The translations under genes and the position numbers were made by a program. 46,907 nucleotides of DNA from a virus (lineage: Duplodnaviria > Heunggongvirae > Uroviricota > Caudoviricetes), in IMG/VR virus record IMGVR_UViG_2651869724_000014. One strand, written 5' to 3'. Every line of letters begins with the position of its first letter. The first letter of the stretch is position 1. The notes below the pieces were generated by a model. It was not told where the DNA came from. It was given only the letters and a program-made list of their open reading frames with translations, and searched no databases. Of this stretch, positions 14,924 to 45,908 are shown in pieces.

Positions 14924-15127
14924 ATGAGCAGCTTATTTTTAACCGAAGATGAATTGCTAATATTAACGGGCTGCAAATATGCAAGCCACCAGCGAAAATG
15001 GTTAATGGAAAACGGGCTTCCGTTCTATACCAATCGTAGTGGCAAACCGATTGTCAGCCGGGATCTATTTACCTGCAATAAAACTTTACCACCACGCGAG
15101 GTAGAGCCGAATTTTGGTGCGATCTGA
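14924..15127 (+). CDS. Excisionase-like protein (DUF4224 type)
   Basis: Small ORF whose stop overlaps the integrase start (TGATG), in the xis position. Confidence 0.65.
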   Translation: MSSLFLTEDELLILTGCKYASHQRKWLMENGLPFYTNRSGKPIVSRDLFTCNKTLPPREVEPNFGAI

Positions 15128-16209
15128 TGGGAAGACGAAGGAAAAATCCTGAACACGAAAAATTACCTCCAAATGTATACCCAAATAAATATAGTTATGT
15201 ATGGAAACCAACATCCAGAGAATCTGTCACACTAACCGCCATCAAGGATGGTTTAGCTGCTTTATGGAAAAAGTATGAGGAAACTGTAAATAATCGCGAT
15301 CGTGCAATGACATTCGGTCGCTTGTGGGAAAAATTCCTCGCCAGCGCCTATTACAGTGACCTTAGTCCAAGAACACAAAAAGATTATCTGCAACATCAAA
15401 AAAAGTTGCTTGCCGTATTCGGTAAGGTACCAGCGGATTCCATAAAACCAGAACACATCCGTCGATACATGGACAAAAGAGGGGAGCAGAGTAAAACGCA
15501 AGCCAACCATGAAAAAAGCAGTATGTCCCGTGTTTACAGTTGGGGGTATGAGCGAGGGTACGTCAAGGCTAACCCATGTGCAGGTGTAAGTAAATTCAAG
15601 GCCAAAAACCGCGAACGATATGTAACCGACAAAGAATACCAGGCAGTATTAAGCGTTGCACCTCTTCCTGTTTTTATCGCAATGGAAATTGCCTATCTGT
15701 GTGCAGCGAGGGTTTCCGATGTGTTATCGCTGAAATGGGAACAGATTGGAAACGACGGGATATTCATCCAGCAAGGGAAAACCGGAAAAAAACAGATAAA
15801 AGCATGGAGTCCACGATTACAGGCAGCGATCGAAAAAGCAAAACAGTTACCAAAATCTGCCTATGTGATCAGCAATCAATACGGCAACCGATATATGTAC
15901 AAAGGCTTTAACGAAATGTGGGTAGAAGCAAGAAATCGTGCTGGAAAAATTTCAGGTATTTTAACCGACTTCACCTTTCATGATCTGAAGGCGAAAGGAA
16001 TTTCAGACTATGAAGGAAGCAGCCGGGATAAGCAACTTTTCTCTGGTCACAAAACCGAAGGGCAAGTGCTAATCTATGACAGGAAGGTTAAAGTTTCACC
16101 AACACTTGATGTCCCGTTACCTGAAAATATTCCAAGAAAATATTCCAAGAAAATATTCCAAGTAATTCCAAGTGTGATTTTTGTCACTGACTTAATGATG
16201 TGTAAGTGA
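15127..16209 (+). CDS. Lambda-family tyrosine integrase
   Basis: MGRRRKNPEHEKLPPNVY... arm-binding N-terminus and a catalytic region with ARVSDVLSLKW and HDLKAKG. Abuts the tRNA-Ser 3' end. Confidence 0.9.
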   Translation: MGRRRKNPEHEKLPPNVYPNKYSYVWKPTSRESVTLTAIKDGLAALWKKYEETVNNRDRAMTFGRLWEKFLASAYYSDLSPRTQKDYLQHQKKLLAVFGKVPADSIKPEHIRRYMDKRGEQSKTQANHEKSSMSRVYSWGYERGYVKANPCAGVSKFKAKNRERYVTDKEYQAVLSVAPLPVFIAMEIAYLCAARVSDVLSLKWEQIGNDGIFIQQGKTGKKQIKAWSPRLQAAIEKAKQLPKSAYVISNQYGNRYMYKGFNEMWVEARNRAGKISGILTDFTFHDLKAKGISDYEGSSRDKQLFSGHKTEGQVLIYDRKVKVSPTLDVPLPENIPRKYSKKIFQVIPSVIFVTDLMMCK

Positions 16210-17298: not shown

Positions 17299-17374
17299 TC
17301 CTCTGTAGTTCAGTCGGTAGAACGGCGGACTGTTAATCCGTATGTCACTGGTTCGAGTCCAGTCAGAGGAGCCA
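17299..17374 (+). tRNA. asnT: tRNA-Asn (anticodon GTT)
   Basis: TCCTCTGTAGTTCAGTCGGTAGAACGGCGGACTGTTAATCCGTATGTCACTGGTTCGAGTCCAGTCAGAGGAGCCA, 76 nt. Confidence 0.95.
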
Positions 17375-17375
17375 A
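17351..17375. repeat. attL core (3' end of asnT)
   Basis: gttcgagtccagtcagaggagccaa, identical to 45796-45820. Confidence 0.85.
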
Positions 17376-17386
17376 TTTAAAGAAAG

Positions 17387-17553: not shown

Positions 17554-18822
17554 ATGTCACTTACTGATACTAAAGTAAAAAATGCCAGACCAGCGGAAAA
17601 AGCCGTCAAGCTCACTGATGGATTTGGTCTCTACCTTCTTTTGCATCCCAATGGTTCAAAATACTGGCAGTTAGGCTATCGCTTCGATGGTAAACAGAAA
17701 GTGTTTTCCATTGGTGTTTACCCTGCGGTTTCTCTTGCTGATGCCAGACAACGACGTGATGAAGCAAAAAAGCTGCTTGCTCAGGGAATCGATCCTAACG
17801 CTAAAAAACAGGCTGATGAAAAAACTCTGCAGGAAAAGCGGGATAAAACCCGTTCGTTCCGTGTCGTCGCCAGAAGCTGGTTTGCCACCAAAACAAAATG
17901 GTCTGAAGATTACGCCGATACGGTATGGAAGCGCCTTGAGACCTATGTATTCCCGGATATTGGTGACAGCAACGTTTCAGATCTGGATACGGGTGATCTG
18001 CTTGTTCCGGTAAAAAAAGCAGAAACGCTTGGCTATCTTGAAATTGCCATGCGGATCAAGCAATACATCACTGCCATCCTGCGTCACGCCGTCCAGCAAA
18101 AACTTATGCGCCATAATCCTGCTTACGATATGGAAGGTGCTGTGCAGAAACCAGAGACTGAGCACCGTCCCGCACTGGAGCTGGAAGAGATCCCCCTGCT
18201 ACTTGAACGTATTGATGCCTACAAAGGCCGTGGACTTACCACACTGGCGATTAAACTCAATCTGTTGATTTTCATTCGTTCCAGTGAACTCCGCTATGCA
18301 CGATGGTCAGAAATCGACTTCAACAGTAAGTTATGGGTGATACCAGAAAAGCGTGAAGTGATTGAGCGCGTCAAATATTCCACGCGTGGCGCAAAAATGA
18401 AACGCCAGCACTTTGTTCCCCTTTGCAGGCAGGCTCTTAAGATACTGAAAGAGATCCGTCAGCTTACCTATGAAGAAGGTAATGACGCCGGATTAATTTT
18501 TACTGGATGTTATGACTCATTCAAACCCATGAGTGAAAACACCATCAACAAGGCGCTGCGTAAGATGGGCTATGACACCACGCAGGACATCTGCGGTCAT
18601 GGTTTCCGAACACTGGCATGTAGTGCTCTGATTGAATCAGGGCTATGGTCTAAAGATGCGGTAGAACTTCAGATGAGCCACAAGGAAAGCAACAGTGTGC
18701 GTGCTGCCTATACCCATAAGGCCAAACATCTTGAACAGAGAAGATTGATGTTACAGTGGTGGGCAGATTATCTTGATGCAAATCGGGATGGGATGGTCAG
18801 GCCGTTTGAGTTTGCTCAATAA
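17554..18822 (+). CDS. P4-family tyrosine integrase
   Basis: MSLTDTKVKNARPAEKAVKLTDGFGLYLLLHPNGSKYWQLGYRFDGKQKVFSIGVYPAVSLADAR is a typical DUF4102 arm domain. C-terminal HGFR...Y catalytic motifs. Confidence 0.9.
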   Translation: MSLTDTKVKNARPAEKAVKLTDGFGLYLLLHPNGSKYWQLGYRFDGKQKVFSIGVYPAVSLADARQRRDEAKKLLAQGIDPNAKKQADEKTLQEKRDKTRSFRVVARSWFATKTKWSEDYADTVWKRLETYVFPDIGDSNVSDLDTGDLLVPVKKAETLGYLEIAMRIKQYITAILRHAVQQKLMRHNPAYDMEGAVQKPETEHRPALELEEIPLLLERIDAYKGRGLTTLAIKLNLLIFIRSSELRYARWSEIDFNSKLWVIPEKREVIERVKYSTRGAKMKRQHFVPLCRQALKILKEIRQLTYEEGNDAGLIFTGCYDSFKPMSENTINKALRKMGYDTTQDICGHGFRTLACSALIESGLWSKDAVELQMSHKESNSVRAAYTHKAKHLEQRRLMLQWWADYLDANRDGMVRPFEFAQ

Positions 18823-18857
18823 AAGTAAACATGGTGGTCAAAGGTTGCTTCAACTTC

Positions 18858-18884
18858 AATGCGGCTAAAGATATTAGCCGCATT
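18858..18884. terminator. 10-bp-stem hairpin between the convergent integrase and HEPN genes
   Basis: aatgcggcta-aagatat-tagccgcatt. No clear U-run. Confidence 0.35.
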
Positions 18885-18888
18885 AATA

Positions 18889-19605
18889 CTAAATCGCTAA
18901 CAGTTCTGTTTTCCAGTATTCACTACCACTTTTATCACAGACATGTGAATATAATATCCTATCCATAATCCTAACAATTTCTTTAACATTATTTAGCTTA
19001 TCAATAACAGTATCTTTTGAAAGATTAATTGAAGAATATGAATGGGCTAACTCCGTGCGGCTATCAGAGAAAGACTGGAGCATGAACTCATAATCTTTTT
19101 TACCTTTCGCAGTCATTGCTTTTAATATATCTTTGATACCAAATCTATTAAAAAGAAGTTTGATATTTTTTTTGGAAGGATATTTTTTATCCATTATCAG
19201 CTGTTTTGGGACAATAACAGGCTTTACAGGAGAATTAGGTGACGATAACGCCTGAAGTTTATCCTTACACTTATTTAAGTCACTCATCATTATTGACTCA
19301 GAACCATGAGAAACGTAATTTATAAAATTTTTCTCTTGGTTTTTGAATAAAGAAAACAAGATAATTTCATCAGGTAGATGCGAAAGGCATCCGTTATTTT
19401 GGTTCAGCATGTCAATCCAATCTTCCAAAACATCTTTAATATAATCTTCGAATGCAGCAGAAACTCGAAATATCGCGTTATTATAAACACTATGTATAAT
19501 ATCTGTTCTTAATTCTTTTATTTTTGAAACATAACGAACCTGTTCAAGCAAATTGGAATGAATCTGCTCGAATTGTTTTCTAGATGCGCTTTTAATATAT
19601 GCCAT
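18889..19605 (-). CDS. HEPN-type (RiboL-PSP / MAE_28990-like) putative RNase
   Basis: Predicted helical 238-aa protein with an R-x4-H motif (RTELAH) near the C-terminus. Start overlaps the DUF262 stop (TGATG). Confidence 0.7.
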   Translation of the reverse strand: MAYIKSASRKQFEQIHSNLLEQVRYVSKIKELRTDIIHSVYNNAIFRVSAAFEDYIKDVLEDWIDMLNQNNGCLSHLPDEIILFSLFKNQEKNFINYVSHGSESIMMSDLNKCKDKLQALSSPNSPVKPVIVPKQLIMDKKYPSKKNIKLLFNRFGIKDILKAMTAKGKKDYEFMLQSFSDSRTELAHSYSSINLSKDTVIDKLNNVKEIVRIMDRILYSHVCDKSGSEYWKTELLAI

Positions 19606-20720
19606 CAGTTGAAATACCGTTCAATGAAATTTTTCATTGTGCTAATACGATAATGAACCGATTGCGTCGCCGAAGTGCCAGAAGTAATCGACTCATTAAA
19701 ACGCTCCTCTGATGTTATTCTTTGAAACTCTATTAAGAAATCCTTAAGTTTTGTTGCATCAAGTTCGTTTATCATATCCTGATTAAATTTTGATACCATA
19801 AACCCGACAATTAGAGCATCAAATAAAGCAGAATTGAAATTTCTTACTTGAGGCTCTAAGTTTTCATTTAGAATTCTAAATGCTTTTTTACCAAACAATT
19901 TATTAATACAGTTTAATGCACCAAGAAATCTACTACGCCACTCCAAGGCAACATCAGGTTCAATATTTTGTTTTTCAGAACTAAAATCATTAAGGAATTT
20001 CTTTAATGGTTTTTTATATGGTGTCACAGAATATGAAAGTGCGAATGCTCTCAATATGAGTTCATTATTCTTCATTCGTGTGTCATTTTTAATTCCTGTT
20101 AAGTCTCTCCATACTTTCTCCTCACTTATTTCGTCAATCATAGTAAATAATGGACCATGATAAACTCCATGACGTACCTCCTGAGGATTTAATTGTACTG
20201 CACCTGTATTTATTCTTTCAAAAACATCAATTTTAATTTGAGGGTGAGTTTCTTTTAATATGGTTATGCATCTCAATGTGCGATTTAAAATATGCCTACG
20301 GAATCTCGCGTCCAGTGATGAAAACGAATTCCCCTCCAATTCTGGATATGCTGTCAATCCCTGTAATTCAAAACCATCCTCAATAAATAGTTTAATTGAA
20401 GTCAACCGTTGATTACCATCAATAACAGATAAACTCTCATCTTTCTCTTGGTTTAAATAAATAACAGGGATAGGACACTGGATTATTAAAGACTCAATTA
20501 ATCTTGATGCCTGCCCTCTACTCCAAACATATTTCCTTTGAAAATCAGGAATAAACACAGTACCATTTTTCAAATAGTCGACGAGTGTTGATATTGAAAA
20601 ATCGTAAGTCTCGGTATGCAATCGACGCTGCTCAGGGGGAATATCAACGATAGAAATATCATCATCATCAAATATTGGGAAAAGTTTATCCGCAAGTTTT
20701 TTGGCATCATTAACAGACAT
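19605..20720 (-). CDS. DUF262 (GmrSD N-terminal / ParB-like) protein
   Basis: IPDFQRKYVWSRGQASRLIESLIIQCPIPVIYL...VIDGNQRLTSI are the DUF262 signature blocks. No recognisable DUF1524/HNH half. Confidence 0.85.
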   Translation of the reverse strand: MSVNDAKKLADKLFPIFDDDDISIVDIPPEQRRLHTETYDFSISTLVDYLKNGTVFIPDFQRKYVWSRGQASRLIESLIIQCPIPVIYLNQEKDESLSVIDGNQRLTSIKLFIEDGFELQGLTAYPELEGNSFSSLDARFRRHILNRTLRCITILKETHPQIKIDVFERINTGAVQLNPQEVRHGVYHGPLFTMIDEISEEKVWRDLTGIKNDTRMKNNELILRAFALSYSVTPYKKPLKKFLNDFSSEKQNIEPDVALEWRSRFLGALNCINKLFGKKAFRILNENLEPQVRNFNSALFDALIVGFMVSKFNQDMINELDATKLKDFLIEFQRITSEERFNESITSGTSATQSVHYRISTMKNFIERYFN

Positions 20721-20921
20721 AATAGAACCTCATAAAAATAATTTTAATATATATTACATTAATGATCATTAATAATAAACACCATCAGTAAAAGATAAAA
20801 ATTACCCGCAAACTATAAATGCGCTTATCATTGCATATGTTATATATATCACAATAACAATAAGTATTTCAATACCTTAGATTACCTTCTACATGCGAAA
20901 TTCTGATGTTGATAAAAAGTA

Positions 20922-22199
20922 ATGTTAAAGAATACCAAGGAATGTGCCAACTCTGTATCAAGTGTGACGAATGCCATTGAAAGGGCCAAGGAACTATCAG
21001 GACTCGTCGTATCACGATTAAAATCCGAAGGCATGTATGCGGTTGGTAATGTGGATGGTTTATACCTTCGCATCCGAAATCAGTCCCGTGCATGGGTTCT
21101 TTGCGTGGCTATGGGAACCCGAATCAACAATCTCGGTAGAACAGTTCCAAGACGTTTGAATATGGGGCTTGGCCCTTACCCGGAAGTCTCCTTAGCCGAA
21201 GCGCGTGACAAAGCGCGTGAGCTACGTAAACAAATCCGTAATGGTATTAATCCCCTTCAAGAAAAACACGAACAAAAAGCCCGGCAGGAAATACTGGCCC
21301 GGAAGAAAAAGACCTTTGCCGAATGTTGTGAAGAAGTGCTGGAGGTCAAAGACAGTGAGATGAAGAACAAAAAACATCTCGCGCAATGGCGTTCCACACT
21401 GGAAACCTATGCCTACCCTTTCATTGGCAAAAAGGCCGTTAGTGAAATCACCAAAGTCGATCTTCTGGCAATACTGGAACCTATCTGGTTAACCAAGAAT
21501 GAAACTGCCAGTCGTCTACGTGGACGTATTGAAACAGTGATCGATTACGCCAAGGCCAAAGAATACTTTGAAGGTGATAATCCTGCCGCATGGAAAGGTA
21601 TGCTGAAACCTCTGTTGCCTCAGCCAAGTAAAGTTCAGATCACCAAACACCATGCGGCCCTTCCCTATAACCAGATCGGCTCTTTTATGAAAGAACTACG
21701 TGAACGAAGCGGCGTTTCTCCTCGTGCGCTTGAGTTTGCCATACTGACCGCAGCACGCTCAGGTGAAATTCGTGGTGCCGAGTGGTCAGAGATCGATCTT
21801 GAAGGTAAAACGTGGACCATACCTGCAAGCCGAATGAAAGCAGCGAAGGAGCATCGAGTTCCTCTGTCTGATGCTGCTGTTGCCTTGTTAAAAGCTTTAC
21901 CACGCTTTAAGGGTATCAGTTTTGTATTCCCTGCCACTCGGAAGGGACAACTCTCGGATACGGCTTTACTGGCAGTCCTAAAGCGAATGGGATATACCGA
22001 TTTAACACAGCATGGGTTTAGATCGACATTCCGTGATTGGGCTGGTGAAACGACCAACTATCCGCGTGAGGTAATTGAACATGCGTTAGCTCACCAGTTG
22101 GCAGATAAGGCAGAGGCTGCGTATCAACGTGGGACGTTATGGCCTAAGCGGGTGGCGTTGATGGATGAGTGGTCGGGGTTTTGTCTTGCCAATGTTTAG
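20922..22199 (+). CDS. Second tyrosine integrase (P4/CP4-57-like)
   Basis: GLGPYPEVSLAEARDKARELRKQIRNGINP arm/SAM-like region. HGFRSTFRDW...AYQRG catalytic end. Confidence 0.85.
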   Translation: MLKNTKECANSVSSVTNAIERAKELSGLVVSRLKSEGMYAVGNVDGLYLRIRNQSRAWVLCVAMGTRINNLGRTVPRRLNMGLGPYPEVSLAEARDKARELRKQIRNGINPLQEKHEQKARQEILARKKKTFAECCEEVLEVKDSEMKNKKHLAQWRSTLETYAYPFIGKKAVSEITKVDLLAILEPIWLTKNETASRLRGRIETVIDYAKAKEYFEGDNPAAWKGMLKPLLPQPSKVQITKHHAALPYNQIGSFMKELRERSGVSPRALEFAILTAARSGEIRGAEWSEIDLEGKTWTIPASRMKAAKEHRVPLSDAAVALLKALPRFKGISFVFPATRKGQLSDTALLAVLKRMGYTDLTQHGFRSTFRDWAGETTNYPREVIEHALAHQLADKAEAAYQRGTLWPKRVALMDEWSGFCLANV

Positions 22200-22209
22200 C
22201 GGTCTGATT

Positions 22210-22503
22210 GAAAACATGATCAACAAGGCGCTGCGTAAGATGGGCTATGACACCACGCAGGATATTTGCGGTCATGGTTTCCGCACACTGGCATGTAGTG
22301 CTCTGATTGAATCAGGGCTATGGTCTGAAGATGCGGTGGAACTCCAGATGAACCACAAGGAAAGCAACAGTGTTCGTGCTGCCTATACACATAAGGCCAA
22401 ACATCTTGAGCAGCGAAGGTTGATGCTACAATGGTAGGCAGATTTTCTTGATGCTAACTGGGATGGGATGGTCAGGCCGTTTGAGTTTGCTCAGAAACAA
22501 TAA
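22210..22503 (+). pseudogene. Displaced 3' fragment of a P4-type integrase gene (paralogous to 18535-18822)
   Basis: Aligns base-for-base with the 3' end of the first integrase: about 20-odd substitutions and one 6-nt indel by hand count. TGG to TAG at 22435-22437. Confidence 0.85.
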
Positions 22504-22825: not shown

Positions 22826-23191
22826 GAAACGAATCCCCAAGAAGTTATGAATATCCCTTATGTAGTACTTACATTCCTAAAGAAACACCACATACAGTGG
22901 CATCAACAGATTTTATAATCCTTTGTTTTCCTAAAAACAAGTCTAAAACTGTATAAAAACACAGTTATGATATAGTCTATTGTTTTTAATGAATAAAAAT
23001 AACTAATCGCGTTTAACGAAGAGAAACTAAAAGTTAGCCACTGCTATGAAAAAGAGCTCCTGACAGCAAATAACTTTCAGAAATCTATAGCGATCTTCAT
23101 CTTGAGAGAGGCTTGTACTTAACCCGCAAAAGGTATAGGTATATAATTATTATCAGCTTATACCAAATGGCTATCAATGATAGGAATAAAA

Positions 23192-24097
23192 ATGATTTTA
23201 GTTATAACATCTAGCTTTGATAAAACAATTGATTACATAGTAAAAAAACATAGCATTAACAATTTTTACAGGTTAGATGTTGATAATTTCTCTGAATATA
23301 AATTTTCTTACACTAAAAAAGGATTCAGTATTGTTAATAAAAATAATAATGAATTGCTCGAGAGTGAATGCAGATCCATCTATTATAGAAAACCAACTCC
23401 TGAGAATATTATCAATAAAATTGATTCAAAATATCATAATCATTGCTTTCGAGAAGTATTCGCTTTTGTTGAAGGGATTGCTGAGTCGTTTACTGGAAAA
23501 TGCTTATCCAAGCCATCAATTATAAAAAGAGCAGATAACAAAGTATTGCAAGCAAAAACTGCAATTGATATTGGATTCACAATTCCTGATTTTATATTGA
23601 CAAATAATTTCGATTGTTTCAAAAACACTTTGACAATCAATAGCATTGTCAAACCGTTATCAAGTGGATTGATAGAAAATCAGAAAGAAAAGGAATTTGT
23701 TCAAACAAATATGGTTGACATGAATAAAAACACAGAAACATTAAAATATTGTCCAGCTTATTTTCAATCGTATACAAAAAAAGAATTCGAGGTGAGATCA
23801 ACATTCATAAATGGTAAAGATTATTCGGTAAAAATAATATCTAAAAATAAAATTGACTGGAGAAAAGACAATAACGAAATATTCTATTCAACAATAAAAA
23901 TGCCTGATACTATAAAAGAAAAATGTCTGAGGTATATGTCAGTCATGAATATTTCTTTTGGATGTTTTGATTTTATAGTTTTTGATGGTGAATGGTTCTT
24001 CTTAGAGATGAATGCAAATGGTCAATGGGCATGGCTAGAAAATGAAACGAATATTAATGTGTCAAGTGAGTTAGTGAGGTTTTTAAATGAAGTATAA
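23192..24097 (+). CDS. MvdC/MvdD-type ATP-grasp ligase (RiPP macrocyclase-like)
   Basis: Blocks MILVITSSFDKT, SIYYRK, RADNKVLQAKTAIDIGFTIPDF, IDWRKD and FGCFDFIVFDGEWFFLEMNANGQWAWLE parallel the microviridin-type ATP-grasp enzymes. AGGA RBS before the ATG at 23192 (the track ORF starts at 23177). Confidence 0.8.
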   Translation: MILVITSSFDKTIDYIVKKHSINNFYRLDVDNFSEYKFSYTKKGFSIVNKNNNELLESECRSIYYRKPTPENIINKIDSKYHNHCFREVFAFVEGIAESFTGKCLSKPSIIKRADNKVLQAKTAIDIGFTIPDFILTNNFDCFKNTLTINSIVKPLSSGLIENQKEKEFVQTNMVDMNKNTETLKYCPAYFQSYTKKEFEVRSTFINGKDYSVKIISKNKIDWRKDNNEIFYSTIKMPDTIKEKCLRYMSVMNISFGCFDFIVFDGEWFFLEMNANGQWAWLENETNINVSSELVRFLNEV

Positions 24098-24941
24098 TTT
24101 CATTTACTTTATTATAAAATTATTAAACTTTTCATTATTATTCCACACATCATTAGATGAGAATTTTGATACTATTGAAAAAAGAAATGTTATTAATTCC
24201 ACGTCATTAAGAGTATCTTTATTATGTTTTCCTGTGGGGAGTAAAATAATATATTTATTAACTTTCAATAAAAAATCAAACCGTATTTTGGATAAATCTA
24301 ACTTCCAGTTTTTTACGAGCATACACTATGATACACTTTGCCCAAGAATATCGGGCACAAAAATTGAAGAATATGTCATGGCGTATAGTCAATATATTAA
24401 ATCAATTCTACCTAAAAGAAGGAAGGAACAAGAAGATTTTTTAAAGCAGCGCCTTTCCGAAAATAACGATAGTTTATCTAATCTTCAAAGTAAGATAACA
24501 CATTATACTACTATCACTATTGCCCTCACAGGGGCAGTGGTTTATCTACAAACCATTCTACCATCCGCAAATACAAATTTTGCAATAAGATTTATTTCCT
24601 ATTATTTATTTTTTATATTGCTTGTTGATATAATTAATTTATTTCTTTTTCTAAGAAAAGGAATGATGGTAAGTAGTTTTTCTCAATCAAGTTTTAAATC
24701 ATTAAAATTTGATAACAGTAATTATGCCTTAACGAAGGCTATATATCGTGACTGGATAGCAAGAAAAGATGACGTCAGATATTTTGCAGGTATAGTTAGA
24801 AATGCCGAAAAATATCTATACAGATCGATTTTAGTTGGAATCACGCTATACATGTTTTCCATTTCACTGCAATATTATAGCGATAATCCAGTGAATGAAA
24901 TCATATTCACGCCGTCAGGCATGTTTTTAGCTGTAAATTAA
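24087..24941 (+). CDS. Multi-pass membrane protein of unknown function
   Basis: GAGG RBS and an 11-nt overlap with the ligase gene. Hydrophobic segments: TTITIALTGAVVYLQTIL, FISYYLFFILLVDIINLFLFL, SILVGITLYMFSISL. Confidence 0.6.
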   Translation: MKYNFIYFIIKLLNFSLLFHTSLDENFDTIEKRNVINSTSLRVSLLCFPVGSKIIYLLTFNKKSNRILDKSNFQFFTSIHYDTLCPRISGTKIEEYVMAYSQYIKSILPKRRKEQEDFLKQRLSENNDSLSNLQSKITHYTTITIALTGAVVYLQTILPSANTNFAIRFISYYLFFILLVDIINLFLFLRKGMMVSSFSQSSFKSLKFDNSNYALTKAIYRDWIARKDDVRYFAGIVRNAEKYLYRSILVGITLYMFSISLQYYSDNPVNEIIFTPSGMFLAVN

Positions 24942-24952
24942 AAGGATATAAT

Positions 24953-25297
24953 ATGAAACCGTATACTATGCTCTATAGTGAATCTTTCGAAATAAACGCA
25001 TCAACAATTTCAAGTAAAACAAACTCTACCGTAAAAACATTTACCACAGAACCTAATGATGAAGATTATCTCAACACTTGGACAACGCATACAAGAGTCA
25101 TAGAGAACCAAGATGAGGATTACAGTTTAGCCCCCAGCAACTGTGAAAGAAAATACGAAATATCTAATGAAAAGCAGTCTGCTATGGATACATTTTTTAC
25201 AGAATCTATTGAAAATAATGATGATGATTTTATAGTATGTAGAACATTTGTAACAAATGTCGTTGAATCAGGTGATGATGATTTCTATTTTAACTAA
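24953..25297 (+). CDS. 114-aa acidic protein with four T-[FW]-x-T...D-[DE]-D-[FY] repeats (candidate multi-core precursor)
   Basis: AAGGA RBS. Repeats: TFTTEPNDEDY, TWTTHTRVIENQDEDY, TFFTESIENNDDDF, TFVTNVVESGDDDF. Confidence 0.65.
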   Translation: MKPYTMLYSESFEINASTISSKTNSTVKTFTTEPNDEDYLNTWTTHTRVIENQDEDYSLAPSNCERKYEISNEKQSAMDTFFTESIENNDDDFIVCRTFVTNVVESGDDDFYFN

Positions 25298-30412: not shown

Positions 30413-31933
30413 ATGATTAGTGAAATCACAACAAATGGCACTAAAATTAAACTAAGAAATAATAGTGCTAATGATATTAATATTTATGATATGGATTCTT
30501 TATCTTTACTTATTGGTATAAATGGTTCAGGGAAGACAAAATCCTTATGTAGCATAATTAACTATTTCTTTCCTAAAAATAACATGCAATTAACAGGCGA
30601 TTGTACAATATTAAACTCTAGCGGTGAAAGAATAGATCATACTGAAATTAGAAACTGGGGAGTTATATATTTCACCCCATTACCATTTAGACCAAAGTTG
30701 AATATTAGAGATAGTAGGTTTATTAACGCATCTCCAAGCTTGAATGGAAAAAATACTGTATTTGACCTTATCGAATACAAGGATTTAATATCTGACTTTG
30801 ATATTTATCCAAAAGTTGTTGCCATGAAGATGACAAACATTAGCAAAGTTGCAAGATTAATACTTAATATCGCTTTAAATAATAAAGATCTTAATCAGAA
30901 CAGCATACTACTGAATCACGGTCTCCTTGATATTTTGTCATTACGTGCAAAAATTGATGATAATATAGATAATGACGATTCAGACACTATAAAATATAGT
31001 ACCAATAAAAATATTCAAGCAGAAATTGATTCTATTATGCAGCGTTGCTCCGCGCATCTGATTGATGAAATACTTCATCGCGCAGGTGAAGAAAAACTCT
31101 TTTCCATATTTAGCATAATAGATTGGGCAAGTACAAAAAAACAGTTCAGTGATAACGTAGTAATTCCATTATTAAACAAACACTTAAATTTAAACATCCG
31201 TTCAAATAGAAAACTCAGAGAGACTAAATTATATTTAGAATGTGAAAGCAAAATAGATAGTTTACTTAATATTATAAAATATGAGGTAAAAAACCATGAA
31301 ATCATAAAGGATTCAAGACTTAATGAATCAACTTTAAGGTTAGAATTCGAAATAGACCCTTACGAAGGACAAAGGTTATTAACAAGATACAATTTGAATG
31401 ATATTTTTAAAATTGATTTTTCTGATATGAGTTCTGGGCAAATTGCTATTCTAGCTCAAATTGGCGCCATCTCTGACTCTATTACTAAACTGTCAGATAG
31501 AGGTATCAGATCAATACTACTATTAATAGATGAAGGGGACGCTTTTTTACATATCGATTGGCAAAGGAAATATATTTCTAATTTAAATAAAATGCTAGGC
31601 TCATTAAAAACATCTCTGGGCATAGATAATTTACAACTTATTCTAGCCTCGCACTCTCCATTGTTAGCCACAGACGTTCCCAAAGACTTTATAACTAGAC
31701 TACCAATTGAAAATGCTACGTTAAGTGGTTTTGCATCTCCTCTTTATATTTTACTAAATGAATCTTTTGGAACTAAAACCATTGGAGAATTTGCAACAAA
31801 TAAAATTGAAACCATCATCGACAAAATACCTAATAGAATACTGACTGAAAAAGATTATTACCTTATAAATAATATAGACAACCCTCTAATAAAAAGCGAA
31901 ATCGAACGCTTAATTATGCAGCATAAGGATTGA
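30413..31933 (+). CDS. Septu PtuA-like ABC/AAA_15-type ATPase
   Basis: Walker A GINGSGKT, signature MSSGQ, Walker B LLLIDEGDAFLH and an H-loop ASHSP. Confidence 0.8.
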   Translation: MISEITTNGTKIKLRNNSANDINIYDMDSLSLLIGINGSGKTKSLCSIINYFFPKNNMQLTGDCTILNSSGERIDHTEIRNWGVIYFTPLPFRPKLNIRDSRFINASPSLNGKNTVFDLIEYKDLISDFDIYPKVVAMKMTNISKVARLILNIALNNKDLNQNSILLNHGLLDILSLRAKIDDNIDNDDSDTIKYSTNKNIQAEIDSIMQRCSAHLIDEILHRAGEEKLFSIFSIIDWASTKKQFSDNVVIPLLNKHLNLNIRSNRKLRETKLYLECESKIDSLLNIIKYEVKNHEIIKDSRLNESTLRLEFEIDPYEGQRLLTRYNLNDIFKIDFSDMSSGQIAILAQIGAISDSITKLSDRGIRSILLLIDEGDAFLHIDWQRKYISNLNKMLGSLKTSLGIDNLQLILASHSPLLATDVPKDFITRLPIENATLSGFASPLYILLNESFGTKTIGEFATNKIETIIDKIPNRILTEKDYYLINNIDNPLIKSEIERLIMQHKD

Positions 31934-31945
31934 AGGTCTTCATAT

Positions 31946-32878
31946 ATGATTATTTCAATTAAAAACAACTGGGAAAAAGCAATAAAATTACATACACATT
32001 ATTTAAATAATTTGATATGCAACTTTTTAAATAAATCCATTCCTAGTTCTGAAGGACGAGACGAAGCTAAAAAATTTATTCTAGATGTGCATCACCTATT
32101 AATACTTGCCGGTAAACAAGATATATTGGAGAGTATTGATATATATAGAGAGTACAAACACAGATTGTCAATAACGCCGGATATATCGAAGCAATTCGAC
32201 AAAGAAATAAGATCTATTTTTAATTACAATAAGTTTGTTAGGAAAACAGGATCATGGAATGCATATACTCTATGTAAAAAATCAATAAGCAGAACATGTC
32301 CGTATTGCAATCAAGCATATGCTTTTTCGATACAAAAAAAGAATCGCGGTTTTCGTCCTACATTAGATCATTTTTATAGTAAGGATGACTTTCCTCACCT
32401 TGCATTGGTAATTAACAATTTAATCCCAAGTTGTAGTTCATGTAACTCAAGCCTTAAAGGCACAATTGATTTCTTCGCAAATGAACATTTAAACCCACTG
32501 TGGGATGATGAAGTTATAAATTTCGTTTTAACTCATGAGGATGGTGTTTTAACATTAATAGACGGAATGATTTCATCACCAGAAAAAATAAAAATAAACA
32601 TATCTTACGATACTACAAATATTTCAATTAAAAACACAGTAAATACTTTTTTGATAAACGAAAGATATCAAGAAATGACAATAGAAGCAATAGAATTTGC
32701 AACTGCCAAATTAAATCTTGAATATGCCGTATCTACTGGAATATCATATTTCAAAAATAACTCAGAAAGTAGTATATTAAGATTTGACAAAAGAGAATAT
32801 AAAAAATATTTGCTCGGTAAATTATATTTAGATATATATAATAAAATGCCAAATGCAAATATAGTTAACACTCGTTAA
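31946..32878 (+). CDS. Septu PtuB-like HNH nuclease
   Basis: CPYCNQAY...LDHFYSKDDFPHLALVINNLIPSCSSCNSSLKG. 13 nt after the ATPase gene. Confidence 0.75.
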   Translation: MIISIKNNWEKAIKLHTHYLNNLICNFLNKSIPSSEGRDEAKKFILDVHHLLILAGKQDILESIDIYREYKHRLSITPDISKQFDKEIRSIFNYNKFVRKTGSWNAYTLCKKSISRTCPYCNQAYAFSIQKKNRGFRPTLDHFYSKDDFPHLALVINNLIPSCSSCNSSLKGTIDFFANEHLNPLWDDEVINFVLTHEDGVLTLIDGMISSPEKIKINISYDTTNISIKNTVNTFLINERYQEMTIEAIEFATAKLNLEYAVSTGISYFKNNSESSILRFDKREYKKYLLGKLYLDIYNKMPNANIVNTR

Positions 32879-37020: not shown

Positions 37021-37318
37021 TTTTTGAAAAAATCTTTATCTCTGTGCTGACGCACGGCTACGCCCTGACACTGATATTTTTATTTTATTCATCTCCTGTC
37101 TTTTAAATAAAAAGAAAAGTACTCGATCATTGTTTGATCTCTTTTCCTCATGATGCTGAATTTAGATCCTATGTTTAAACATAGTTTTTCCCTTTAGACA
37201 TATAGCATTTGCTCTTAAACGTATAGGAAAACTATATCTTTGATAGCAGCACTTCGTGATTGTTGCGAACAATCACTCTGCTGAACAGGGCTTGTTCCTG
37301 TTAATGATGGATTTTTCA
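37021..37318. repeat. Non-coding repeat unit, copy 1
   Basis: Shares with 37497-37808 a GC-rich box (37042-37076), a palindrome (37169-37184), a promoter-like block and two hairpins (37247-37283, 37285-37301). Confidence 0.8.
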
Positions 37319-37496
37319 ATTAATGATTTTTTCCATATAAATTACTGCCTGTAATCAATTACAAGCGTTTTAAGTATGAAGATAGTTATATGTGTCACCT
37401 TCATGCTTCCAACGTCTTAGCAAGCTTCCTGTGCGGTTTATTAACAGCTTATAGAAAACTATTACTTATATTTATTCTTACCTGATACATTCAATT

Positions 37497-37808
37497 ATTT
37501 TTTTGAAAATACATACATTGTGCTGGCGCACGGCTACGCCCCTGATACTGGTATAAAAATATTTTCCTTGTTCATCTATAATGCATTAATGTTTTATCAG
37601 TGAAAAATAAATAGATCAGTATAAAGATTATTCCCTCCACCGAGTTAGAACTCAGATCTTATGCTTGAATATAACATCTTCCCTCTGACATATAGCATTT
37701 GCTCTTAAACACATAGGAAAACTATATCCTTAGTAGCAGCACTTCGTGATTGTTGCCAACAATCACTTTGCTGGACAGGGCTTGCCCCTGTTAATGATGG
37801 ATTTATCC
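37497..37808. repeat. Non-coding repeat unit, copy 2
   Basis: GC-rich box at 37518-37554. The block from 37681 onward is near-identical to copy 1. Hairpins at 37737-37773 and 37775-37791. Confidence 0.8.
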
Positions 37809-37875
37809 AAAAAAAGATCGCGTCGAAGACGCATATAAATTAAAAGGAATATTAATTAAGCTCTCACACTTAAAG

Positions 37876-37912
37876 CAGCGGTTCGTGATTGTTCGAAACA
37901 ATCACTTCGCTG
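37876..37912. repeat. Third copy of the 37-nt interrupted hairpin
   Basis: cagcg-gttc-gtgattgtt-cga-aacaatcac-tt-cgctg. The inner 9-bp stem is identical to copies 1 and 2, and the outer stem carries a compensatory A-T to G-C change. Confidence 0.75.
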
Positions 37913-38060
37913 ATAGCAGTTATTAAGGAATACAATGCCCCCTGTAAAACCACTAAAACATAACGCAAAAGTAAAGCTGGACTCTCTTAACTTCTTACTA
38001 ATTATTTAATTATAAGCATAGTCCCGGACCAGTAAAATCGCGGCTTCACAACTTTTTTTC

Positions 38061-38144
38061 CTATGTTCGAACATAGCAAACTCCTATGTTCAAACATAGA
38101 TCCGTCCTATGTTCGAACATAGCAAGATCTATGTTCGAACATAG
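38061..38144. promoter_or_regulatory. Array of four 16-bp palindromes CTATGTT(C/T)(G/A)AACATAG upstream of the winged-helix gene
   Basis: Sites at 38061-38076, 38084-38099, 38107-38122 and 38129-38144 (spacing 23, 23 and 22 bp). A fifth site lies at 37169-37184. Confidence 0.7.
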
Positions 38145-38268
38145 TTTTTTTAACATATAACATTGTCATAAGAATATACTTTCTATTTTATTTATAGTTC
38201 TACTATTGACTTTCACTTTTTTGCATAGTATTAAAATAGATATAACAAAAATAATAAGAGGGAATAAT

Positions 38269-39003
38269 ATGAATACACCAGATGCTGATCTATTACACTT
38301 ATTTGAATCATTAACTACCGAGCAAAAGATTGATATCGCAAGACGCTTACTACAAAACAAAGAAATAAAATCAACGACAGTTATTTCTTCTGAGGAAGAT
38401 AAAGCTATTTCGTTTTCACAACCTTATGTATTTGCTTTTACTTCCAACTTTCGTGTGTTCTCTGATCTTGACATATCCAAGAATGAATTCCGTGTATTAA
38501 CCTATATTTTGGAGTATATGGAGTTTGGAAATCTGATCAATCTTTCACAATCATCGCTGTGTAAAGCACTGAATATCGCCTCCGGTAATATGTCTAACAT
38601 TTTTAAAAAACTCAGACAGAAAGGAATACTTGTAGAGCATCATGGTCATCTCTATATCAACTCTAACATTTTCGCAAAAGGGATGAGTCATCAACTGGAT
38701 CAGAAACGTAAAGAACAGTTGAGCAACGCTCGCAATCTTTGCGCAGAAATAGAACAGTATCCAGAAAGTTATTCAGCTATGTCAAAAAGTGAAAGAAGAA
38801 CCCTATCCTTAGAAACTGAGACCAAAGAAATCTATACTGACGCATTTGTTTTCAGTAAGAAGAAAAAGAATAACGCTGTTCCTAATCCCAATAACAGCAT
38901 ACATATTGATAAACCACGAAAAGTATATAAAAGAACAAAGGAAAACGAGGAAGCAAGGAGGAACTCTGTTGACGCAGACTCTCATATGCAGAAAGTATCC
39001 TGA
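38269..39003 (+). CDS. Winged-helix DNA-binding protein (RepL/MarR-like; candidate replication/maintenance regulator)
   Basis: KNEFRVLTYILEYMEFGNLINLSQSSLCKALNIASGNMSNIFKKLRQKGILVEH. The ATG at 38269 has an upstream GAGGG. Confidence 0.65.
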   Translation: MNTPDADLLHLFESLTTEQKIDIARRLLQNKEIKSTTVISSEEDKAISFSQPYVFAFTSNFRVFSDLDISKNEFRVLTYILEYMEFGNLINLSQSSLCKALNIASGNMSNIFKKLRQKGILVEHHGHLYINSNIFAKGMSHQLDQKRKEQLSNARNLCAEIEQYPESYSAMSKSERRTLSLETETKEIYTDAFVFSKKKKNNAVPNPNNSIHIDKPRKVYKRTKENEEARRNSVDADSHMQKVS

Positions 39004-45795: not shown

Positions 45796-45820
45796 GTTCG
45801 AGTCCAGTCAGAGGAGCCAA
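45796..45820. repeat. attR core (copy of the asnT 3' end)
   Basis: gttcgagtccagtcagaggagccaa, identical to 17351-17375. Confidence 0.85.
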
Positions 45821-45908
45821 ATTCTAAAGATTCGCTTTTTTAGCGCAATGTCACTGCTCTTAGTTGAGCATTGCTTTTTAACGGATAGCGGGTTTTTGAC
45901 ATCTTAAG

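Follow-up and report, generated by a model that had tools for sequence, protein, structure and literature searches.

Can a DUF262 protein without a nuclease domain and a small HEPN protein encoded directly behind it form a self-contained anti-phage system? This question is raised by two adjacent genes, hereafter A and B, in the Caudoviricetes record IMGVR_UViG_2651869724_000014, a stretch of 46,907 nucleotides (nt) to which we refer as the window. An initial annotation, made from the letters of the window, had proposed that the two genes constitute a self-contained immunity module in which a sensor of the GmrSD type is wired to an RNase. The comparative data on the pair, its relatives and its genomic surroundings presented here make it probable that A-B is a functional defense module of the PD-T4-2 kind: mobile, self-contained and directed against phages (or against mobile elements).

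Structure of the gene pair and its products

The two open reading frames (ORFs) and their overlap had been delimited correctly in the initial annotation: both ORFs are exact (Table 1), and the 1-nt overlap can be read in the sequence. At the junction, AAC-TGA-TG-GCA, the final A of the TGA of gene A doubles as the first base of the ATG of gene B, and this stop/start overlap implies translational coupling of the two genes. The three peptides quoted in that annotation were likewise recovered in the translations; FIPDFQRKYVW and LSVIDGNQRLTSI are present in A, and SDSRTELAHS is present in B. A GAGG is situated 7-10 nt before the ATG of A. On the other side of the pair, a hairpin begins 3 nt past the stop of B and faces the stop of a convergent integrase gene. 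Its RNA fold amounts to -22.6 kcal/mol (z = -4.57 versus shuffles); it has no U-tract and is absent from the list of the consensus scan, and because the U-tract is absent, its role as a terminator is putative. The genes A and B have a G+C content of 32-33%, versus 44-48% in the flanks. Apart from the two tRNAs, an Rfam scan of the 16-24 kb interval (E ≤ 0.1) returned a single match, below threshold, within tRNA-Ser and ascribed to chance, and no RNA antitoxin.

Protein A matched the Pfam family PF03235 (GmrSD_N, DUF262) with an E-value of 3.9e-27 and 96 bits (cut-off 33.2). Neither DUF1524/HNH nor any second Pfam family was detected in it at E ≤ 1, which agrees with the earlier description of A as a DUF262/ParB protein devoid of the usual nuclease half. 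The three DUF262 motifs, defined as in PMC12065111, are well conserved (Table 1), and the role of DGxQR has been described for GmrSD, BrxU, SspE and HEC-06 (PMC10952713, 10.1101/2024.01.29.577857). In PADLOC-DB, the best match of A was NsnA (PDLC03877; 5.6e-83, 277 bits, residues 28-369, model positions 38-382/385); PD-T4-2_A (PDLC04027) was also matched (9.2e-44, 148 bits, residues 51-364, model positions 48-359/363), and the GmrSD-like models (HEC-05/06, SspE) cover the first ~ 110 residues of A at most. Judging from the full-length match to the NsnA profile, the helical C-terminal half of A would correspond to the ParBDB of PMC12065111, a putative DNA-binding domain. The structures nearest to the model of A are BrxU and SspE, along with ParB/sulfiredoxin folds, and a sequence search for solved relatives returned one marginal BrxU match only.

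Protein B matched PF18735 (HEPN_RiboL-PSP) with an E-value of 6.5e-12 and, weakly, PF18737 (MAE_28990). PF18735 was matched by all 51 of the diverse relatives of B as well. The structure model of B is all-helical with a HEPN fold (predicted local distance difference test score, pLDDT, 94.3), and the nearest folds are those of type II/VII HEPN toxins (5yep_B, 8xdj and 7ae2); a sequence search for solved relatives gave nothing meaningful. The residues R183 and H188 of the R-x4-H motif are invariant in an alignment of 51 sequences with 22-87% identity and at least 95% conserved in 56 paired B sequences; further invariant residues in the 51-sequence alignment are Y3, S6, P143, N147, D215 and W231. 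The description of B as a helical HEPN protein of the RiboL-PSP/MAE_28990-like type with an R-x4-H motif is therefore borne out, and the profile search at which, according to the initial annotation, the HEPN assignment could have failed was passed with 46.2 bits against a cut-off of 28.4. No PIN or NsnC match was found in B and no nucleotidyltransferase match in the pair (Pfam, PADLOC). An exhaustive search with the B-family profile yielded 207 cluster representatives (50% identity), nearly all of ~ 230 amino acids (aa). In one protein of 1186 aa, P0276, 11 separate stretches match this profile; the best of them covers only the N-terminal ~ 90 residues of B, which suggests a repeat protein built from part of the B-family HEPN scaffold. 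On the strength of its fold and the R-x4-H motif, B is predicted to be an endoribonuclease of the RiboL-PSP HEPN family.

Conservation and co-divergence of A and B

Another question is whether the two genes travel together or merely happen to be adjacent in this window. When one genome per species was scanned with a profile, 76 loci with homologues of A (44-91% identity) were obtained, in 72 of which enough sequence was available downstream. The next ORF on the same strand was a homologue of B in 68 of these 72 loci; searched with a profile of close relatives of B, these homologues gave E-values of 1e-148 to 3e-6. The stop of A and the start of B were separated by a median of 1 nt, and in 57 of 62 loci the distance ranged from -14 to +6 nt. 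The hosts belong to about 10 phyla and include Gamma-, Beta- and Alphaproteobacteria, Desulfobacterota, Bacteroidota (21 loci), Acidobacteriota, Verrucomicrobiota, Chloroflexota, Bacillota and Cyanobacteriota. Among 455 neighboring ORFs within 4 kb of the pair in 63 loci, no family occurred in more than two loci; thus, no methyltransferase, ATPase or antitoxin is conserved next to the pair. Fusions of A and B were not found among the top profile matches of either family.

The pairwise identity matrices of A and B are correlated (Pearson 0.91, Mantel p = 0.001). The mean pairwise identity is 31% for B versus 52% for A, so that B diverges much faster, as would be expected of an effector engaged in an arms race. 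A-B is a stable, horizontally mobile two-gene module in which the sensor-like protein is conserved and the effector-like protein evolves fast.

Relation to PD-T4-2 and other known systems

Has an architecture of this type been tested experimentally? The initial annotation had left this question open, and the answer is yes. PD-T4-2 (Vassallo et al. 2022), described as 'DUF262, HEPN', is a 1540-bp system of Escherichia coli ECOR65 that was obtained by functional selection (PMC9519451). From its native promoter it protects K-12 against T4, and its deletion in native ECOR65 dramatically increases T4 plaquing (PMC9519451). According to the HHpred results in PMC9519451, its A protein is DUF262 and its B protein is HEPN_RiboL-PSP (97.8%) and MAE_28990 (96.9%); PD-T4-2A is RCO39066.1, and PD-T4-2 B is an unannotated ORF (ECOR65 QOYX01000002:338334-339873). 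The pairing itself had been predicted earlier by comparative genomics, as the initial annotation noted: in the 2013 survey (Anantharaman et al., PMC3710099), the RiboL-PSP-HEPN family is placed in an operon with ParB. Since the architecture has already been tested in PD-T4-2, the finding is less novel than the initial annotation implied.

We compared A-B with PD-T4-2 by means of the PADLOC profiles and the HHpred table of PMC9519451. Both are two-gene operons of the E. coli accessory genome, with a DUF262 protein of ~ 360 aa without DUF1524 encoded first and a small HEPN protein of the RiboL-PSP/MAE_28990 clade with R-x4-H encoded second. However, the score of A on PD-T4-2_A is exceeded by its score on NsnA, B has 238 aa versus ~ 168 aa, and the whole system spans 1832 bp versus 1540 bp. 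Because of the lower score on PD-T4-2_A, A is not regarded as an orthologue of its PD-T4-2 counterpart. As far as the profiles indicate, A-B shares every architectural feature of PD-T4-2 and yet represents a separate, divergent lineage.

With NsnA of Menshen (NsnABC; Millman 2022; PMC12065111), A shares the ParB-DUF262 domain and the helical ParBDB, and the proposed logic is also alike, with a DUF262 sensor and an RNase effector encoded in trans. Unlike in Menshen, neither an NsnB ABC-ATPase (AAA_15 + DUF3696) nor an NsnC inPIN nuclease is present, and a single HEPN gene stands in their place; the immediate neighbors of A are B and two integrase genes. GmrSD, BrxU and SspE possess an N-terminal DUF262 NTPase domain with DGxQR, as does A, but in these enzymes the DUF1524 His-Me domain, a DNA nuclease or nickase, forms the C-terminal part of the same polypeptide, whereas the partner of A is a separate HEPN protein. 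A is also shorter than BrxU and SspE (371 aa versus ~ 560-600 aa), and no GmrD-type nuclease adjoins it. Among other HEPN defense RNases (HepT toxins, ApeA and DARNA/PD-T7-3), the HepT-type toxins have in common with B the R-x4-6-H motif and the four-helix HEPN core. In contrast to HEPN-MNT (HepT/MntA) systems, the pair lacks an MNT antitoxin; an RNA antitoxin and a fused sensor domain are absent as well, and the partner of B is a DUF262 protein, from which the regulation of B would consequently have to come. Finally, ParB-fold and HEPN domains occur together in the validated E. coli defense system PD-lambda-5 (Vassallo 2022), but there they are fused and accompanied by a methyltransferase, whereas A and B are separate and no methyltransferase is conserved nearby.

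Other DUF262+HEPN lineages

In four other DUF262+HEPN lineages, the sensor protein scored higher on NsnA than on PD-T4-2_A, and the HEPN proteins gave a weak match to PD-T4-2_B or none. A pair of 365 + 180 aa is carried directly after the replication gene by IncX1 plasmids of E. coli and Salmonella, such as p573-5 (12 genomes). A pair of 387 + 182 aa lies in a lambdoid prophage of E. coli NRG 857C, beside a truncated major-capsid pseudogene, and occurs in 31 E. coli genomes. In the P2-like phage Peduovirus P24B2, a pair of 381 + 239 aa with an MAE_28990-type HEPN is located at the genome end and adjoins a DNA methyltransferase gene. (These three loci are L079, L081 and L078, respectively.) The pair on plasmid pAB1 of Acinetobacter baumannii is a member of the A-B family itself. 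The HEPN partners of the IncX1, lambdoid and P2-like lineages show no pairwise similarity to B beyond the motif, and six short-HEPN representatives from viral contigs, together with the NRG 857C HEPN, scored no higher than 19-22 bits on PD-T4-2_B. When complete E. coli genomes were walked by distant blastn from the A-B, IncX1 and lambdoid pairs, only those three lineages were returned.

Of the 56 A-like loci in IMG/VR contigs, 30 include a tightly coupled ORF with a length of 158-240 aa and an R-x4-H motif. Three distant A-like proteins (L094, L095 and L114) have a fused C-terminal HNH-like CxxC...H...N module and no HEPN partner, while four others (L119-L121 and L128) have an N-terminal extension, possibly an Mrr_N-like winged helix-turn-helix (by eye), and no partner gene. 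These variants seem to illustrate the swapping of effectors and sensors on one scaffold. The overall picture suggested by the sequences is that of a large modular superfamily in which a DUF262+ParBDB sensor is combined with swappable effectors, with PD-T4-2 as one validated twig and A-B as another.

Genomic context

The DNA of the window is that of E. coli, and the occurrence of the pair in this species is patchy. Among 5426 complete E. coli genomes, the pair was found in 28, including enteropathogenic E. coli (EPEC) E2348/69, always on the chromosome and at least 99% identical. The E2348/69 proteins are WP_000115572.1 for A ('DUF262') and WP_000323418.1 for B ('HEPN domain-containing'), with no further annotation. 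The pair lies on an island delimited by direct repeats of a tRNA-Asn 3' end (Table 1), the integrase of which occurs in at least 305 genomes. According to the annotation of the matching E2348/69 island, the cargo consists of an integrase, a pilV/type IV pilin cluster, TraD, a MobQ relaxase and a RepL-like protein, and by this annotation the island appears to be an integrative mobilizable element. In E2348/69, A38 and D7, an island of this type is inserted at another copy of asn-tRNA.

Within the island, the pair and a second integrase gene form a low-GC insertion (GC 0.32-0.33 versus 0.44-0.48 in the flanks) bracketed by direct repeats of an integrase 3' end. The insertion could have originated either as a mini-element targeting the integrase 3' end or from tandem islands trimmed by deletion. 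A fragment of the integrase 3' end is likewise found with the cassette in Edwardsiella, and in Phytobacter such a fragment flanks it. Relatives of the cassette with 82-84% DNA identity were found in three other contexts: at a prophage edge beside a Rac-like prophage integrase in Citrobacter portucalensis, where the homology reaches position 20984 of the window; in an islet flanked by insertion sequences and adjoining an AAA_15 ATPase pair in Edwardsiella tarda; and at tRNA-Asn in Phytobacter. In plasmid pAB1 of A. baumannii ATCC 17978, the pair has 47% (A) and 28% (B) identity.

Between the integrase gene and pilV, the cargo is variable: Ecol_517 has the ATP-grasp trio alone, and A38 and D7 have unknown proteins. 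In the same slot of the RM9131 sister island (L083, 8469-10384), there is a type I cyclic oligonucleotide-based antiphage signaling system (CBASS), with a SMODS cyclase (PADLOC 2.8e-149) and an S-4TM effector annotated as three fragments; thus, this slot behaves as a hotspot of defense cargo.

Further features of the island are listed in Table 1. The ATPase and HNH genes also match Septu PtuA/PtuB weakly and are likely, given these profile matches, to be a second defense pair on the A-B island. A single DUF4238 protein of a P2-like prophage hotspot protects against T7 (PMC9122126). The ATP-grasp trio, which is kept in the integrase-to-pilV slot of both Ecol_517 and E2348/69, could be a module of the RiPP type (ribosomally synthesized and post-translationally modified peptide; microviridin-type) or cargo of unknown function; its 284-aa and 114-aa proteins have no Pfam or PADLOC match. 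Upstream of the RepL-like gene (38206-39003), the region 37158-38147 is densely filled with repeats. In addition to direct repeats of 160 nt and 40 nt at 37158-37913, it comprises a 21-nt unit with a palindrome (TCCTATGTTCGAACATAG..) that is present five times, four of the copies being spaced ~ 23 nt apart at 38059-38147; these repeats look like iterons or an origin of the element. Outside the island, a unit with a 13-nt period (GAAAATATTCCAAGAAA) is present in three tandem copies at 16123-16165, at the 3' end of another integrase gene (15127-16209) and just upstream of tRNA-Ser(cga), a second integration site located at most 1.2 kb from the asn-tRNA site, across mtfA.

Table 1 Features of the A-B pair and its island in the window
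Feature	Position	Strand	Description
Gene A	19605..20720	(-)	ATG ORF, 371 aa; ParB/DUF262 NTPase-like, helical C-terminal half, without nuclease domain
Gene B	18889..19605	(-)	ATG ORF, 238 aa; all-helical HEPN (RiboL-PSP family), predicted RNase effector
TGATG overlap of A stop and B start	19603..19607	(-)	Read from sequence; 1 base in common
DUF262 motif I, QRxxxW (Q61-R62-K-Y-V-W66)	20523..20540	(-)	Q61, R62 and W66 at least 95% conserved in 56 A sequences
DUF262 motif II, DGxQR (D101-G-N-Q-R105)	20406..20420	(-)	All five residues at least 95% conserved; predicted center of nucleoside triphosphate (NTP) binding/hydrolysis
DUF262 motif III, FxxxN (F167-E-R-I-N171)	20208..20222	(-)	F167, E168, R169 and N171 at least 95% conserved
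HEPN catalytic motif R183-T-E-L-A-H188 (R-x4-H)	19042..19059	(-)	Predicted RNase center; invariant R183/H188
Hairpin, 13-bp stem	18856..18886	(-)	Putative terminator, common to B and the convergent integrase gene
AT-rich intergenic region, 201 bp	20721..20921	(-)	Between A and the divergent integrase gene; presumed promoter and ribosome-binding site
Low-GC insertion, 3386 bp	18819..22204	.	B, A and second integrase gene; blastn breakpoints versus Ecol_517 sister island (L082)
299-nt direct repeats of integrase 3' end	18530-18828 and 22205-22503		91% identical; bracket the insertion
Second integrase gene, P4-type	20922-22199		Intact, inside the insertion; pseudogene in E2348/69
Island attL/attR	17351-17378 and 45796-45823		28-nt direct repeat of tRNA-Asn 3' end (96%); bounds ~ 28.4 kb
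ATP-grasp trio	23177-25297	(+)	Three co-oriented genes, overlapping or closely spaced; MvdD-type ATP-grasp 306 aa + 284 + 114 aa; 28-29% G+C
AAA_15/AAA_21 ATPase (506 aa), then HNH protein (310 aa)	30413-31933, 31946-32878	(+)	PADLOC PDC-M62A/B, 5e-23 and 1.5e-41
DUF4238 protein, 351 aa	34908-35963	(-)	PF14022, 1.4e-12; no PADLOC match

Discussion

What, then, is the most plausible function of A-B? The proposal of a self-contained two-gene immunity module was strengthened by the tight coupling of the genes across phyla, their co-divergence, the invariant motifs, the residence on islands, plasmids and prophages, and the CBASS occupying the corresponding slot of a sister island. Several points weigh against an assignment to the PD-T4-2 kind. 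In the comparison of both proteins with PADLOC, which the initial annotation had recommended, A matched NsnA and PD-T4-2_A, but B matched no PADLOC family at E ≤ 1, PD-T4-2_B (PDLC04028) included; 10 representatives of the B family were likewise without a match. Because of this, the assignment is one of architecture and Pfam family, not of orthology. In the upstream region of A, promoter-like matches numbered 11 versus 12.7 expected from shuffles, and since the consensus matches are not enriched, no promoter was located or placed. In addition, PD-T4-2, Menshen and Dazbog, all DUF262 systems without DUF1524, are mechanistically uncharacterized according to reviews (PMC10952713, PMC12065111), and the defense activity of this particular pair is deduced by comparison.

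If A-B is indeed such a defense module, how could it work? In GmrSD, BrxU and SspE, the NTPase activity of DUF262 couples the recognition of modified DNA to nuclease activation (PMC10952713, PMC12065111), and HEPN RNases are held silent until triggered, with the characterized HEPN enzymes cutting RNA (10.64898/2026.02.22.705581). From these two analogies, we propose that A senses phage DNA and licenses B via its NTP cycle. A would be a stand-alone sensor of the GmrSD type, a ParB/DUF262 NTPase with its three motifs intact and a helical ParBDB-type domain; B would be made at a fixed stoichiometry via translational coupling, and R183-x4-H188 would contribute to a composite RNase center in a dimer. 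In uninfected cells, A would keep B inactive. Upon infection, A would recognize a cue on DNA, the likeliest being phage DNA that is modified or undergoing replication (compare GmrSD, BrxU and SspE), and NTP binding or hydrolysis at DGNQR would bring about a conformational switch in A. B would then be released or activated and would cut RNA (tRNA, mRNA or rRNA), whereupon translation would halt, phage replication would fail, and the cell would arrest or die (abortive infection). Direct communication between A and B is supported by the translational coupling, the co-divergence and the lack of a third component. The formation of an A-B complex, the trigger, the RNA target and the choice between abortive infection and direct immunity are presumptive parts of this scheme, as are DNA sensing by A and the preference for abortive infection over restriction; taken alone, the step-by-step mechanism deserves somewhat less than even confidence.

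Several other explanations have to be considered. A-B could be an addiction module of the toxin-antitoxin (TA) type that stabilizes the island, with B as a HEPN toxin and A as an antitoxin that sequesters or modifies it, without dedicated phage sensing. The toxin folds nearest to B (type II/VII; 5yep_B, 8xdj and 7ae2) are in line with this explanation, as are the operon order, in which an upstream partner is followed by a translationally coupled toxin as is typical of TA operons, and the fact that the pair is always carried by mobile elements, one of them a 13-kb plasmid with an additional RelE/ParE TA system. However, a protein of 371 aa that has kept all the NTPase motifs of a sensor family and 52% mean identity across phyla is unlike the small antitoxins, and PD-T4-2, of the same architecture, gives phage protection (PMC9519451). 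We therefore consider this explanation unlikely; moreover, TA-like regulation and abortive-infection defense are compatible, which makes it more of a sub-case than a true rival. Even less probable is direct immunity by type IV-like restriction, in which modified DNA would be recognized and destroyed by the ParB-like domain of A or by B and the cells would survive. It is true that DUF262 is the sensor of the DNA-targeting GmrSD, BrxU and SspE, the latter two of which are the structures nearest to A, that ParB-fold domains are classed as DNases in the 2013 survey (PMC3710099), and that the distant A-like viral proteins L094, L095 and L114 carry a fused C-terminal HNH without a HEPN partner. Against this stand the absence of any DUF1524/HNH or other nuclease match in A, the bona fide HEPN nature of B with its metal-independent RNase motif R-x4-H, and the fact that characterized HEPN enzymes cleave RNA (10.64898/2026.02.22.705581).

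Could A instead be a decayed remnant of Menshen, an orphan NsnA beside an unrelated HEPN gene? NsnA is the top PADLOC match of A (277 bits), and neither an NsnB ATPase nor NsnC is adjacent to it. However, since four other DUF262+HEPN lineages also prefer NsnA, this model is evidently generic for stand-alone DUF262+ParBDB proteins. The pairing in 68 of 72 loci, the median gap of 1 nt, the co-divergence and the lack of a recurrent ABC-ATPase neighbor in the 4-kb flanks of 63 loci contradict such a remnant, and this explanation, to which we assign next to no probability, was rejected.

Within the defense function that we favor, a more specific and more doubtful possibility is that A-B constitutes a distinct DUF262-HEPN immunity subtype, spread over ~ 10 phyla and unannotated at least by PADLOC-DB v2.0.0, in which an NsnA-like sensor is combined with a long RiboL-PSP HEPN that has invariant residues of its own (Y3, S6, P143, N147, D215 and W231). 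Such a subtype could have its own trigger and its own RNA target. In it, an RNase would be gated by the ParB-type NTP switch itself, with no ATPase transducer as in Menshen, and an arms race with phage inhibitors would account for the HEPN partner, which evolves fast but co-diverges with A. At least five interchangeable sensor-effector lineages would then be present in E. coli alone.

No new principle emerges from the pair, as DUF262-HEPN pairing was predicted in 2013 and protection was demonstrated in 2022 with PD-T4-2. If active, A-B would be an added defense system of EPEC E2348/69 and 27 other complete E. coli genomes, one that PADLOC-DB v2.0.0 probably misses because B matches none of its models. 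With only two proteins and a highly conserved sensor (~ 50% identity across phyla), A-B offers a convenient minimal model for signaling from DUF262 to the effector, a step common to PD-T4-2, Menshen and Dazbog in which a DUF262/ParB NTPase without its usual DNA nuclease would detect infection and activate an effector in trans.

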